Shown here: positions 15,001 to 36,000 of the stretch, one piece after another
Numbering within the stretch: position 1 is the stretch's first letter
How the letters are laid out: every line of letters starts with the position of its first letter
From: Acholeplasmataceae bacterium
Lineage (GTDB): Bacteria > Bacillota_I > Bacilli_A > Acholeplasmatales > Acholeplasmataceae
Length of the DNA: 64,000 bases
NCBI GenBank assembly: GCA_963667565.1
Contig: OY763415.1
Location: 736,001 to 800,000 of the forward strand
Reading direction: 5' to 3'
Program-made: the position numbers

Positions 15001-18000
15001 AACTTATTTTTAGTTATCTCATCGGTATTTTAGGAACTGTAGTCCTCATCTTTGCAAGTGGTTTTTATAAAGAAATATCAGCATCAATATTTATCATGAT
15101 TGCTTTAATAGGCCCACTTCAAGCACCAATGCTTGCATTGATTGTTAATTTGTTTGCCTCAAATAAAGTTGAAGGATTTGTTGCAATGAAATCAAGTGGA
15201 CTTATTTTGATTGGTCCAATCGCTTCAGTCTTTCTAACGAATTGGACTGAATTACTTGTTGGCGTGCTCCCTGGTTTTTGGTCGACAAAACTTATATATA
15301 GTCAACTTCCAAATACACAGACTTATCTGAATGAACCTTGGCTATATTTTGCTATTGGGATGATAGTTCACTTCATTGTCATTTGGATTGTCTTTAAACT
15401 CTATTGTAAAAAACAGCATATTTAAATTAAAAAGCTCAAACATCAAAGTTTGAGCCTTTTTTTAACTATAAATTTGCCATGCCCAAGTCGTGATATCAGG
15501 TTGATAACCTTTATTCCAACTTGCTGTTGATATATAATATGTCCCATTGTATAAAACAATGTCACCTGTTGTATATAAATTGTAGCTTAACCAGTTTTCA
15601 CTTACTTCATTCCATGAGTCACCTAATCCTGAAATTGGATTATTGTAACTTGCATAGGATGCAAGCGCAACATAATATCTATCTATATAATAAACAATAT
15701 CTCCAATCTCATAAGTAGATACTGATGAGTATATACCGCTTGCATCTTGTAATCCTTGCCATGCACCAGTGCCTGGAGGATTATTAGAATCATATGTATA
15801 ACTACTACTGATGACAATCCAAGTTGTACCATCATATGTGAATCTGTCACCATCAGTATAAGTGTGATTGATGTCTAGTGGTTCTGCAGGTGCTTCATAA
15901 TAAAACAATGCTTGATATCCCCAAGAAGGAGAATTTGGTGTTTCCTCAATAATATGAATAGTTACATAATATCTTCTTGGAATTCTTGAACTCTCAAGAT
16001 AGACTAAATCTTGAATATAAGACTGTTCAAATTCAACTTCGAAACTATATCCCTCAGGTAAATCAACATATACGACGTAAAAACCATACATCGATGTTTC
16101 AAATTGATTGTTATCATATGAATCACTTGATTGGTTGTAGTAAGAGAATAGACCCATAGAGACTAAAATATCATCATATTGCATTTCACCTTGGAAGTCG
16201 CTCGCATATTGATATATATTGACTTTAACAAATACTTGTTCAATTAAATCTTGCGTATCATTTTCAACTGTAATGTCAAATTTGATGTTATTTGTCGCAT
16301 CTTGTACGGCAATATAATAGTCCGTGTAATGTGTTGGATAGTCATTGTAATCTTCTGCATAGATACGATAGTGAATATAGTTAAGTGACTCACCTGTACC
16401 AAAATCAGTAAAATCTGCAGATAGATTTGTTGATTGATATGTATAATCAATGTTTGCTTCATCTGTAACTCTATATATAGATGATCCATCAGGAATATAG
16501 AATGTAGGCATATATGCGGTCAAATCAGTTTCTTGAACTTGTCCAATAATCCAGTAAGATTGATAAGATTCATAAGTTCCATAGTCAATACCTGATGTTG
16601 GTAGTACTGAGATAATTCGAGATGTTGGATTTTCTTCATCAAAATATGCTAAATATTCTGTTGGAGTTACTTCATCGATATCAATGATGGTAACAAATGC
16701 ATCTAATACTTCATCAAAGACTGAATCACTCGCAAATAAAACATTCTTTAAATGTGAATTATCATTTCTTAGTTTAGTCACTTGAAGCTCATTAAATGTA
16801 TAGTGCCATGTAAGTGTTTGACCATTAACACTTGCAACTTGATCATAACTTAATTGATAGAAATAACTACCTTTAGCAGTGCTTTGATTTAAATCAATTT
16901 CATAACCAATATCACTGATTGGATTTGTAAAATAATCAATACCTTCTAGCGCATCTTCACCTGCAACAAGTGGTGTAAATGATGAGTCAATTGTTAAAAT
17001 ATCTTCAGTCGCAAAATATGTATTTAAAAAATCATATTCAACTCTGATTGTTGGACTTTCTTGATATAAAACATTGACATTTGTAACAGGCAAGCTTAAC
17101 GATCCACCGTTTTTATAAACTGCACTTGGATTTTGACTTAATGCACTTTCAATAATATAGTGATTAAATACATTTGTAGAGCCATTTTCTGCCGTTAAAT
17201 GATAAGCAATTGTATATTGATGACGATACCCGTCAACAAGTGAAACAGCAAAAGTGACATAACTAATTTCTGCAAAATTAGAGATCACAAGACCATCTAA
17301 ATAACTTGGAAGTTCATTTGCAACTTCATCATAATAAACATGAGAAATCGATGATAAATTTGTGAAATTAACAACATGAGTTGCTGCTTGTTCACTCAAA
17401 TAATACATACCGTAATCAATATAAGATGTATATGAATTTGATGAAATATCTATGACTTCATCTTGATATGTCATCTGCAAAACATCAGCATTTGCACTTT
17501 CTTGTTTTGAGAAATGAATTCTAAAGATTTCACCCGAAAGCAATGTTAGTTCAATATAATAATCACCACTAGCAAAATCTTCATTAGCTTCAAAAACAAC
17601 TGTTGCTTCTCCATATCCCCACTGACCTGTATCATTGTTAAAATCATTAAGTGTAATGACTTCTCCTTGTGAAAGTTTATATAAAGATGTATAGACTTTA
17701 ACGCCAGTGTTATTATCAAAGACTTCAATATATGGAAGTAATTGAAATTGATTTGAAACATTATAAGTTTCATATGAAATTCTGATGATGCCATTTTGTC
17801 CAGTTGTGTCATAAGATAAATCATTAAGTGCTGTTAAATTATTGACATTGTAATATTGTGGAAGACTTGCAACACCATTAACAAGTAAACTATTGATATC
17901 AGTGATATCTTCATTTGCTGTTCTAATAATTCTTATTTCATAATCCTGATAAGTTGAAGTGTCTGCTTGATTATATTCTTGTGAATAAACTCTTACAGAA

Positions 18001-33000: not shown

Positions 33001-36000
33001 ATCATCATAATTAATGACAACTGGCTACCTTTAACTAGGCCCTATAGCTTTGCGTCCTATGGTTCCCCATAGTTTGCCTTTTTACATTTGTATCTATATT
33101 TTATGACAAGTTTATCTAATTGTCAACAACAAATGAAAACTTTTTTTAAATTTAGGATAAAACATTGTGCCATGCTTCAGTTCCTAAGTAACCACGTAGT
33201 GATTCTGCAGAAATAGGTTTAGAAAAATAATAACCTTGTTGGATATCTATACCATAATGTATTGCTTTATCCATCATTTCTTTATTTTCTATCATTTCAC
33301 AAATGATTAAAGTATCATGTTGTTCAGCAAAATCAACAAGTAATTTAGCAAATTTAGATTTCATATAATCTTCATCTTCTTTTAAAAACTCATTGTCTAA
33401 TTTGATAATGTCAACTTGAAGATCTGTAACTTTTGATAATGTTTGATAATCTAGTCCAAAACCATCAATGGCAATTTCGAAACCCATTTGCTTAAGTGTC
33501 TTAAGATTCTTAAGTATAGTTTCTTGTTTTTCAAAGATTGCAAATTCAATAATTTCTAGAATAATATTGTTTGCTTGTGCTCTATATTTCTTAAGTACTT
33601 TTTGCATATCCATAGCAATAGAATCACTCATAAGTTGTTTAGGCCCAATATTCATTGAGAATTTGATTTTATCATTTGGAAAATATTGAGCAATTTCTTG
33701 TTGCGTTTTAATAATGGTTTCTAATCCCCATAATGTAATCCAATGAATATCACCTGATTGTTCCATAATACCTAAAAACTTAAATGGAGATAAAAGACCA
33801 TGTTCTGGATGATTCCATCTAATAAGTGATTCGACACCATAGATTTGTTTTGTAACTACATTAATCATTGGATGATAGAACAATTGAAATTCTTTATGCG
33901 TAATCGCATGTTTAATTTGATAGTAATACTCAACGTGCTCTCCACCTTGTTCACTCATTTCTTCTGAGTAAATACGGATATTATTTCCACCATTTCTCTT
34001 AATAATATATGTTGCAAGTAACAATGAATTAATTAAATCCTTAATACTATGCCCGTGTGCGGGATAGAACGCGACAGCAATAGATGCAGTTGATTTAATA
34101 TCTGTATCACCAAATAATCTAATCGGTTTTTGAATCGCTTGTTTAATCTTATGTGCAAATGTAACAACTTCACTGCGATCATAATCATGATTGAAGAAAA
34201 TTAAGAATTCATCATTTTGATATCTCGCAATCTTAACACCTCTAGGTAATGCTCGTTCCATATTTTTAGCAATTTTATGAATAATACTTTCACTTTCTTC
34301 TTTACCGAATGCATTTATGAAGTCAGTAAATTTATCTAAATCGATATAAACTACGCTAAATTGGATATCTTTTCCTGTTTTAGTTAAGTATGAAGTAATT
34401 AAGTTGTTCATCTCATTTTTAGAAAGTACACCTTCAATAGAGAGTGCCTTCTCATCTTTAATTTTTTTTCTTTCTTTAAAAAATGAAAATGCTAAGAAAT
34501 ATACAACAACAATAATTAAAGCGATTAAAAGAAACGTTAAAATGATTGCTGATGCATCATTTAAGTATATTGGAAACATCATTTTCTTCTAACCTCCTTT
34601 TTATTTTTTATCAAACTGACTGATTTTGTTTTTTCTAAGTTATAAGCTTTGATGAGTTGTATTGCTTGTTCTTTTGGTACCGGTGCTGAAATCATATACC
34701 CTTGAATGATGTCACATCCACCTTTATAAATAAGCTGATTTTGCTTTTGTGTTTCCACACCTTCAGCAATGACATCTAATCCGATATCTTTTGCTAAATT
34801 TGAGATCATATGAACTATGGCTCTTGAATGGGCATCTTCTTCAACACCATCAATAAATGTTTTATCAATTTTGATTGCATTGATTGGTAAATCTTTTAAA
34901 TATTGAAGTGATGAATATCCTGTACCAAAGTCATCAAGGTGTATATTAAATCCATACTTTCTTAAAATGTTTAGTTTTGCAATGACTAATTCAAATGAAT
35001 CAATTAAGAATGTTTCAGTAATTTCTAAACTAATAGCGCCTTTTTTAAGTTCATATTGTTCAAAAACACTAATAATTTCATTAACAAATCCCGCTTGGAG
35101 CATTTGTACGGGTGAAATATTTAAAGAAATTTCTACATTATAGTGCTCTAATTCCTTAGCTGCTAAAAACGTTTCATGAAGTGCGATTCTACCAATGTCG
35201 ATAATCATTGAATTTTGTTCTGCCATACGAATAAACTTAAGTGGTGACTCACTTGCATATCTTGGATTATTCCAACGAATCAGTGCCTCAAATCCAACAA
35301 TACGTTCTTCTTCATTGTTATATTGGGGCTGAAAAACCATTTTAAACTCTTGGTTTGTAATGGCTTTTGCTAAATCCATTTCCATTCTATTACTTCTTGA
35401 TGCCACAATACTTAATGAAACATCATATATAAAATAGTTTTTAGTTGTATTACTTTTAGCATGCTCTAATGCAAGGGTCATGTTTTCAATACATACTTGA
35501 GGATTCAGTATTTCATATTTTTCATTTTCCTTTAAGAAAATACCAAATTTCAAGTGAATATTAAGCAAGTTTCTATCTATGGTTAATGGTTGACTAAAAA
35601 TCTCATTTAATTTTTGCATCCATAAATGTACCCATTGGTAATTTTCGATATTTTCTAATAACACTACAAATAAGTCACCTTCTAGGTTAAATAACATTGA
35701 TGGATAACCTTCTAATGTTTCAAGAGCATAATCAGAAACAAGTCTCAAGAAGTGATCTGTGCTTTTTTTTCCTAAAAGCAAACTGATTTTGCTAAAATTA
35801 TCTATTTCAAAAGCAATCAGTGCATTCTTTTTATGGATGCGTTCTTCATTTTTAAATAAATCATCTAAGACCTGCATAAGTGAATTCTTATTAGGTAATT
35901 GAGTGATATTATTCATAAGTGCGAGTGTTTTATACTCATCAAACTTACCTTCTGATTGAGAAACATCATCTCCAACCAAAATAAATCCACCTTGTGCTCT

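Follow-up and report, generated by a model that had tools for sequence, protein, structure and literature searches.

A riboswitch-gated CoCoPALM-type locus in a wall-less bacterium: a candidate c-di-GMP-controlled surface fibre or adhesin system

What could an operon of signal peptidases, secreted proteins and a restriction-like GTPase, placed behind three tandem riboswitches, do in a bacterium lacking a cell wall? We addressed this question in a window of 64,000 nucleotides from an Acholeplasmataceae genome (contig OY763415.1); positions below count along this window, and all features lie on its minus strand. ORF calling gave eleven co-oriented ORFs (32760-15462), in agreement with the 11-gene operon that a survey of this genome had described; the starts of g00753 and g00745 were corrected to the probable positions 32724 and 24272, respectively. 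Contigs from two DNA-type runs of different studies covered the locus in 30 of 30 bins. We consider it probable (roughly 0.6) that the locus is a CoCoPALM acting as a c-di-GMP-triggered surface fibre or adhesin machine with a co-opted GTPase. This reading draws on the riboswitch/terminator anatomy, the conserved gene order, the intact GTPase motifs and a McrC-like protein without a nuclease fold. It draws also on the top fold match to TasA, the N-terminal extension, and the codon adaptation and downstream stem of g00751, as well as on the terminators of relatives, the weak response of a known aptamer mutant, nine GGDEF cyclases with Asp at the specificity site and the co-occurrence of GTPase and riboswitch.

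Host and conservation of the locus

The host had been described as wall-less, and our searches bear this out. In the genome, which is 99.85% complete, neither a PBP transpeptidase nor MraY was found, and with peptidoglycan synthesis genes absent the host appears to be of the Mollicute type. The sole Mur-ligase match in the genome was FolC and the sole EPSP-domain match was AroA. The locus is kept in Acholeplasmatales and was present also in walled Clostridia and Bacilli bins; hence it is neither peculiar to wall-less cells nor an adaptation to the loss of the wall.

Gene order was well preserved among relatives. A SipW gene lay upstream of the GTPase gene in 59 of 65 loci, a DUF2357 gene next to it in 65 of 71, and a subunit gene upstream of it in 48 of 49. 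The riboswitch was found in 34 of 35 genomes having a close GTPase ortholog versus 7 of 26 others, counts in which kin are not independent. Counting against our reading, some duplicated operon copies (L070, L073-L076, L079) had neither a McrC gene nor a head riboswitch. Cultured carriers include Peloplasma aerotolerans (L064/L073), Paracholeplasma vituli (L081) and Mariniplasma anaerobium (P0023), so the system is open to experiment.

Signal peptidases, candidate subunits and the giant protein

Two SipW-type signal peptidases are encoded, as had been claimed: g00750 (29245..29958; TIGR02228 3.3e-17, 62.8 bits), which has a charged cytoplasmic tail, and g00746 (24397..25044; 1.2e-14, 54.5 bits). 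Both passed the cut-off of 51.85 bits and kept the Ser and His motifs. Our own pattern for a SipW-type N-terminus matched five proteins in the operon, the number reported before. Genome-wide it matched 9 of 1685 ORFs (shuffles, mean 0.22); besides the five in this operon, two of them fell in the second riboswitch operon. TIGR04088 matched only g00745 among six proteins, at 13.7 bits, under its cut-off of 19.

The five putative substrates are g00752 (320 aa, 31046..32008; TFA/W site), its paralogue g00751 (305 aa, 30062..30979; HHalign 99.95%), g00747 (248 aa, 25053..25799; TYA/W), a minor subunit candidate, g00745 (23622..24272; TYA/W) and g00744 (22936..23622; TYA/Y). By homology, the two peptidases would cleave them at T-[YF]-A/[WY]; after the cleavage site W1, F2, T3 and T5 were invariant in 112 sequences. 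With HHalign, the profiles of g00747, g00745 and g00744 did not match those of the main subunits, and g00747 matched no other subunit beyond the N-terminus. A further protein, g00753 (235 aa, 32017..32724), has an N-terminal TM helix and TFY/G instead of the canonical SipW site. HHalign related it to g00751 (96.5%) and g00752 (97.4%), which together with the comparison of N-termini identifies it as a sixth subunit paralogue predicted to escape the usual cleavage and makes it a candidate membrane anchor or nucleator. Its nearest named Atlas cluster is camelysin/PF12389 (score 0.86, 48% of members), which we take as a lead only.

The candidate major subunit is g00751, for which 357 homologues were found and whose codon adaptation ranked 23 of 1351. 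It is followed by a strong stem-loop without a U-tail (29976..30039; -28.1 kcal/mol, z -4.8, 0 of 200 shuffles), possibly an mRNA stabiliser that sets subunit stoichiometry. The AF2 model of g00751 (pLDDT 92) is a beta-sandwich with a disordered N-terminal extension (mature residues 1-10 below 50). Its top VIA match among 48,161 chains was the TasA fibre 8aur (Z 5.7, rmsd 3.7, 132 aligned), a Z in the range that VIA calls common and with which unrelated beta-sandwiches tie at 5.2-5.4. The alignment starts at mature residue 21, so that an N-terminal extension is left over. Foldseek returned nothing for g00751 at E<=0.001 (E 0.017), the Pfam search gave no PF12389 match at E<=0.1 in the operon proteins, and the subunit had no sequence match among PDB chains. 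Moreover, strand 13-19 is confidently folded in the monomer model, which therefore does not support a donated strand. The TasA-type donor-strand fibre that the survey had proposed is hence weakly hinted at by the model.

At the other end of the operon lies the exported, acidic 2488-aa protein g00743 (15462..22928), which had been noted previously. It has an N-terminal hydrophobic helix, two C-terminal CBM5/12 modules (CBM_5_12 9.4e-7, over the cut-off) and a weak GLUG match (0.014), and is a candidate adhesin.

The weak, non-specific TasA match, the presence of six subunit types of which three are unrelated by profile, and a subunit number that varies between relatives would all suit a system with the same regulation and export whose products form a non-filamentous coat or matrix, or scaffolds that display the giant adhesin. 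We regard this as possible but rather doubtful, as the dedicated SipW peptidase, encoded together with the candidate subunits as in TasA/CalY systems, and the conserved post-cleavage extension follow the TasA pattern (PMC9674648), and a single subunit stands out by codon adaptation.

Riboswitches and their signal

Three aptamer-terminator units stand at the head of the operon: 32980..33088 (aptamer 33013-33088), 32855..32962 (aptamer 32887-32962) and 32738..32843 (aptamer 32768-32843). A fourth, 24287..24391 (aptamer 24316-24391), lies ahead of the last three genes. All four aptamers scored 55.9-62.1 bits with Rfam RF01051, whose gathering score is 35; this upholds the earlier description of three tandem aptamers and an internal one. 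A hairpin plus U-run follows each of them (-15.4, -15.9, -17.8 and -15.9 kcal/mol), so the fourth likewise has a terminator, and the 5' arm of every hairpin is the 3' end of its own aptamer. This overlap predicts ON logic in all four switches. A sigma-70-type promoter candidate (33098..33126; TTGACA-17-TAAAAT, 11/12) ends 10 nt ahead of aptamer 1; it is a consensus match only, the best among 103, and such matches are overall no commoner than in shuffles (123 expected).

G20 and A47 are present in the pocket of all four aptamers. The canonical C92, however, was found only in the fourth, the three head aptamers having U92; the register of position 92 was fixed via the P1 context common to mixed arrays. 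Among relatives, U92 occurred in 36 of 57 head aptamers and in 0 of 29 internal ones, and terminators stood behind 33 of 36 U92 and 43 of 55 C92 aptamers. In two relatives the tandem runs to four complete switches. The C92U mutant of the Vc2 riboswitch gives a weak response, which extra cyclase restores in part (10.1101/617340).

Just upstream are two membrane GGDEF-EAL proteins, on which the survey was silent, as it was on g00749 and g00748. The first (859 aa, 34579..37158; Pfam EAL 9.5e-63, GGDEF 8.3e-16) has a degenerate GGDEF domain, and its EAL motifs look intact (EALIRW, DDFGTGYSS, EGVE); it is likely a c-di-GMP phosphodiesterase. In the second (476 aa, 33152..34582; Pfam EAL and GGDEF) both domains are degenerate (QNDEF, ESLIRW, DGFG, EMIE), and it may possibly be a c-di-GMP receptor. 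Related loci with at least 9 kb upstream had an EAL gene in 31 of 42 cases. Nine intact GGDEF cyclases are encoded in the genome, and the specificity site of each is Asp.

Since the base at position 92 forms a Watson-Crick pair with that of the ligand (PMC6140456), the head switches might instead read another dinucleotide, most simply 3'3'-cGAMP, whose adenine would pair with U92. With the internal switch reading c-di-GMP, the operon would then combine two signals. The restriction of U92 to head aptamers fits this idea, as does the fifth aptamer of the genome, outside the window, which has A20, the GEMM-Ib criterion (PMC6140456). A20 occurs in none of the four window aptamers, and a Ser/Thr (Hypr) site in 0 of 9 intact GGDEFs of this genome (G000) and 0 of 10 readable ones of two relatives (G003 and G007); a SMODS nucleotidyltransferase was absent from G000 and present in only 3 of 61 relatives. 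A single tandem array of the relative G001 has U92 and C92 copies in alternation, and the neighbours are EAL genes, not cGAMP enzymes. We therefore hold cGAMP to be an unlikely ligand; the alternative bears on the input alone and could stand beside the fibre model. As no cGAMP synthase was found in the genome, the likeliest signal is c-di-GMP with a raised threshold. Of the c-di-GMP-switched surface structure put forward earlier, the SipW processing and riboswitch gating are supported; U92 in the head aptamers makes its ligand less sure than was claimed.

A GTPase module of CoCoPALM type and its proposed role

Between the two peptidase genes lie g00749 and g00748. The 514-aa g00749 (27678..29222) resembles E. 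coli McrB (6hz4, E 0.0048) and is predicted to be a TM-anchored AAA+ GTPase with an NxD motif; its N-terminus is hydrophobic, with a TM helix near residue 51 by hydropathy. Pfam gave no domain besides AAA_5, so it has no N-terminal modified-DNA-binding domain. Walker A and N-[KNR]-D-D (a shortened NxD followed by D/E) were each present in 77 of 77 full-length orthologues. The 616-aa g00748 (25818..27668) is a McrC-like DUF2357 protein (PF09823 3.6e-11) with a C-terminal helix of ~200 residues. Residues 51-264 of its model match the N-terminal part of McrC (Z 8.3); there is no strand after residue 277, everything after 282 is helical, with a long helix at 417-615, and the PD-(D/E)xK nuclease fold is absent. 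Only 2 of the 33 alignment columns conserved at >=90% fall beyond residue 260 (N348, K438). The pair keeps its fixed place between two signal peptidases, at 48-98% identity across Acholeplasmatales, Bacilli and Clostridia, which contrasts with mobile defence islands.

By published gene content and motif, the two proteins and the two peptidases fit CoCoPALM, named by Bell et al. (2024, eLife, PMC11090510) in three sentences that defer the analysis; its published features include a GTPase fused to an N-terminal TM and coiled-coil (FtsB-like) segment. An anti-phage or DNA-handling module (restriction-like, or for DNA uptake or export) in or using the surface operon is unlikely given the fixed position, the missing nuclease fold, the near lack of conservation beyond residue 260 and a TM helix where the DNA-binding domain would be, even though the pair descends from McrBC, PADLOC PDC-M26A matches the GTPase domain (E 6.7e-44) and the related CoCoNuT systems are predicted to act in defence in the same paper. 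From its gene context, g00749 may have a role in surface assembly.

In the preferred reading, a c-di-GMP-triggered fibre or adhesin machine, transcription would start just ahead of the three head units. Because every terminator is built in part from the 3' end of its aptamer, ligand binding would permit read-through, and transcription has to get past all three. If U92 weakens c-di-GMP binding, the head stack would open sharply, only at high c-di-GMP; the canonical fourth switch would separately gate the adhesin and the two subunits encoded before it, and the adjoining EAL proteins would drain or sense the signal. After cleavage, the freed N-terminal strand of g00751 might complete the next subunit's beta-sandwich as in TasA, uncleaved g00753 might tie the chain to the membrane of a cell without a wall, and g00743 would bind surfaces. 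McrB, as a hexamer anchored in the membrane, and McrC, devoid of its nuclease, would make up a cytoplasmic GTPase module. Docked onto the tails of the peptidases by coiled coils, this module would power or time export and assembly and would not cut DNA. More tentatively, one may picture, in free-living wall-less bacteria, an actively extruded, perhaps retracted, TasA-like pilus with a domesticated restriction-enzyme motor and an uncleaved-subunit anchor, where three to four low-affinity U92 switches form a high-threshold gate or read a second cyclic dinucleotide made by some further enzyme.

Such a machine would mean that a restriction GTPase was turned into a surface-assembly motor, and that wall-less bacteria possess a defined structure for attachment. 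Through this locus CoCoPALM, a large named class, is linked with control by c-di-GMP and with specific candidate fibre subunits. The conserved split between U92 heads and C92 internal switches, with the four-unit arrays, offers natural test cases for the tuning of a riboswitch threshold by one pocket base, as well as possible high-range c-di-GMP sensors. The novelty claimed by the survey was overstated: the core fits CoCoPALM, GGDEF/EAL signalling was noted in Acholeplasma laidlawii in 2008 (PMC2408644), and 12 triplet c-di-GMP-I arrays had been counted (PMC9481103). In the open-licence papers covered by our searches, nothing ran counter to its claim of a first output for c-di-GMP in Mollicutes. 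New here are the U92 head aptamers, the four-unit tandem arrays in two relatives and the sixth subunit paralogue g00753.

The locus shares with CoCoPALM (PMC11090510) an NxD-type McrB with an N-terminal TM, a coiled-coil McrC homologue and adjoining signal peptidases. It differs in being controlled by riboswitches and in having EAL neighbours, six candidate subunits, a giant candidate adhesin and a wall-less host; the main text of that paper does not contain 'riboswitch', 'di-GMP', Mollicutes or Tenericutes, and its CoCoPALM passages name no subunits. With McrBC type IV restriction (PDB 6HZ4, 6UT5, 6UT6) it has in common the AAA+ GTPase and the stimulating N-terminal finger/helical bundle of McrC, whereas here a membrane anchor replaces the methyl-DNA-binding domain, a long helix the PD-(D/E)xK nuclease and NxD the NxxD motif. 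Bacillus subtilis tapA-sipW-tasA (PMC9674648; PDB 8AUR) likewise combines SipW, the cleavage motif and a beta-sandwich with an N-terminal extension; g00751, however, departs from TasA at 9% identity, Z 5.7 and no PF12389 match, and the operon has two peptidases, a GTPase module, a riboswitch in place of SinR and no wall anchor. Finally, Bc3-5 before cspABCDE of Bacillus thuringiensis (PMC4759541) also comprises three full aptamer-terminator ON units ahead of surface protein genes, but the genes controlled are unrelated, and the U92 heads, the fourth internal switch and the four-unit relatives set the present locus apart.

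Operon products and subunit fold

Rfam returned the four c-di-GMP-I aptamers of the window at the places of the survey's finding (55.9-62.1 bits), and a fifth lies outside the window in the same genome. In all four window aptamers, the 3′ end is reused in a hairpin followed by a U-run (−15.4 to −17.8 kcal/mol), which implies ON logic, as described for Bc3-5 in the accessible part of PMC4759541. A near-consensus promoter candidate stops just ahead of the first aptamer, and independent DNA-type contigs span the entire stretch. The eleven-gene operon was also recovered, with eleven ORFs downstream of the aptamers, all on the same strand. 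The description of the host as wall-less stood up as well: PBP and MraY are absent from the genome, the Mur-ligase match is FolC and the EPSP match is AroA. A fluoride riboswitch (window 53079-53150, 38 bits) has a 399-aa ORF downstream on the minus strand.

We favor, with a probability of about 0.6, a c-di-GMP-triggered, SipW-processed fibre of g00751 accompanied by a giant adhesin and an McrB/McrC GTPase. High c-di-GMP would open the head stack, and SipW would free the subunit N-termini. g00751 would then polymerise with g00753 as its anchor, the giant, g00743, would attach to surfaces, and the GTPase would drive or time export and assembly. The RNA anatomy, gene content, motifs, conservation and nuclease loss are shown directly; ligand, threshold effect, filament, anchor and motor role are inferred.

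Both g00750 and g00746 pass TIGR02228, in agreement with the proposed pair of SipW-type peptidases. In each of the five proposed substrates, a hydrophobic helix is followed by T-[YF]-A|[WY], a pattern that matches 9 of 1685 ORFs (0.22 in shuffles); seven of the nine lie within the two riboswitch operons. The second of these operons (G000:C1:1146875-1151553) has an A20 (GEMM-Ib-type) aptamer, for which no overlapping terminator was evident. It encodes two clear and one possible SipW-like peptidases together with SipW-type substrates, one of which is 436 aa long and has four CBM5/12 modules; a frameshift near 1150440 splits one subunit gene.

HHalign identified g00753, g00752 and g00751 as paralogues (96.5-99.95%) and found no match of g00747, g00745 and g00744 to these three past the N-terminus. 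Mature g00751 was modelled with confidence as a beta-sandwich, its first ten residues being disordered. Compared with 48,161 chains, the model ranked the TasA fibre top, aligned from residue 21, at a Z of 5.7 that is tied with unrelated folds; a similarly weak TasA match had been noted earlier for g00752. Foldseek against PDB returned nothing for g00751 at E≤0.001, its profile matched no PDB chain, and the predicted complex of three mature copies scored 0.00, which weighs neither for nor against a filament. A non-filamentous coat or display scaffold made of the same products is rather unlikely, and we prefer the fibre. The nearest named Atlas cluster of the putative anchor g00753 is camelysin-like, which we take as a lead only. 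The candidate adhesin g00743 carries two CBM5/12 modules at its C-terminus, while its first 1200 and last 188 residues gave no convincing PDB chain.

In one metatranscriptome (0.06 share), two short pieces were identical to parts of g00751 and scattered others came from relatives; these are contigs, which cannot show transcription, strand or level. A 56%-identical g00751 homologue (P0034) carries the label of the protist Anaeramoeba ignava and most likely comes from a bacterial passenger.

Aptamer pockets and the ligand

By Vc2 numbering, the two guanines are recognised by G20 and C92, and cGAMP sensors are marked by A20 (PMC6140456). At positions 20/47/92 the three head aptamers have G/A/U, the internal aptamer G/A/C and the fifth aptamer A/A/C. 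We surveyed 91 distinct aptamers by pattern search on the plus strand of 80 loci, the best 80 of 125 GTPase-related stretches. Among the head aptamers, 35 were G/A/U, 11 G/A/C, 10 A/A/C and one A/A/U; the internal ones were G/A/C (27) or A/A/C (2), and U92 occurred in none of five unclassed aptamers. A Fisher test of U92 in head versus internal aptamers gave p 1e-9; given the relatedness of the genomes, we do not count this as evidence.

Four complete aptamer-terminator units are present in each of two related genomes, G001 (L035:3206-3630) and G028 (L037:2937-3400). A census of this riboswitch class gives 347 doublets and 12 triplets and, in the portion available, mentions no quadruplet (PMC9481103). 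The G001 array has two U92 and two C92 copies with identical P1 context, so that a register shift (C92 plus an inserted U) is ruled out as the source of U92. Several Clostridia and Bacilli loci (L099, L108, L119, L122, L132 and L133) have a head aptamer with A20/C92, not G20/U92, which suggests that lineages weaken the pocket by different routes. A C92U mutant in V. cholerae was weakened and partly rescued by an additional cyclase, according to the accessible text of 10.1101/617340.

The simplest reading is that the head switches respond to c-di-GMP with a raised threshold. A cGAMP-type input, which would fit with the rest of the favored mechanism, is improbable. Ser/Thr occupies the specificity site of cGAMP-making GGDEFs (PMC6456294); we observed Asp in 9/9 intact GGDEFs of G000 and in 10/10 readable ones of the relatives G003 and G007, the site being unreadable in four degenerate GGDEFs of G000 and in 12 of the 22 GGDEF loci of G003/G007. 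A search of G000 for SMODS enzymes was negative, and neither search revealed a cGAMP source.

The window has two more genes for intact GGDEF cyclases (5262-6824 and 60007-61188). G000 has one diadenylate cyclase, and immediately downstream of its gene comes one for a membrane PAS-PAS-degenerate GGDEF protein (G000:C1:1569062-1571575). GGDEF stretches near opposite contig ends (G000:C1:1737570-1738670 and 19684-20130, one of them short) are identical over the part compared, possibly reflecting a duplicated or overlapping assembly end.

GTPase pair, spread and known systems

The survey had not described g00749 and g00748. g00749 belongs to the McrB-type AAA+ proteins and has a TM helix near residue 51; its full-length orthologues retain Walker A and N-x-D-D in 77/77 cases and the Walker B pattern in 74/77. 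g00748 carries DUF2357, and residues 51-264 of its model resemble McrC in its N-terminal part (Z 8.3, rmsd 3.4, 136 aligned); a Foldseek search of PDB was empty at E≤0.001. From residue 282 the model is helical to its end, with a terminal helix of 200 residues, and the nuclease domain is therefore missing. A role of the pair in defence, which a PADLOC match favors, or in DNA handling is improbable; in the preferred mechanism the pair would power or time export and assembly.

At a second McrB-type locus (G000:C1:233445-249778), a 623-aa protein similar to g00748 is encoded between two McrB paralogues with TM anchors (46% to g00749). Downstream come a protein of 1174 aa with a transglutaminase domain and an exported one of 2207 aa; the part examined showed no signal peptidase.

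In the GTDB collection, 125 stretches have a relative of the GTPase. The best 80 of these include Acholeplasmatales as well as other bins of Bacilli and bins of Clostridia. Close relatives carry the label Acholeplasmataceae. Among loci of these 80 with enough flank, a SipW gene lies upstream of the GTPase in 59/65, a subunit gene upstream in 48/49, an EAL gene upstream in 31/42, and a DUF2357 gene follows in 65/71. The riboswitch was present in 41 of 61 related genomes, a GTPase orthologue (best E below 1e-140; four genomes with only weaker paralogues scored as without) in 35, and both in 34. In a phylum sample, 82/399 genomes had a GTPase match, and three large families had none (0/54, 0/89 and 0/48). 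This occurrence indicates an old system that is not confined to cells without a wall.

Several Acholeplasmataceae have two tandem operon copies ∼15 kb apart (L064/L073, L065/L075, L069/L079, L070/L131). The first copy follows the EAL genes and is without riboswitch, second peptidase or McrC gene; U92 switches and the complete gene set are present in the other.

In the open-licence literature, we found c-di-GMP riboswitches linked neither to SipW/TasA operons nor to Acholeplasma or Tenericutes, and none of the papers listed by a further search named Acholeplasmataceae. Among relevant matches, the name CoCoPALM occurred only in Bell et al. 2024 and its preprint. As far as the available text goes, that paper named the class and deferred its analysis, describing a clade of NxD-type McrB proteins that carry a fused TM/coiled-coil segment and are accompanied by signal peptidases and a coiled-coil McrC (PMC11090510); its supplements may list these loci. 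Already known, then, are the class by name, triple switches, and the GGDEF/EAL proteins of A. laidlawii, noted in 2008 (PMC2408644, in part). The present locus would be a variant of this named class.
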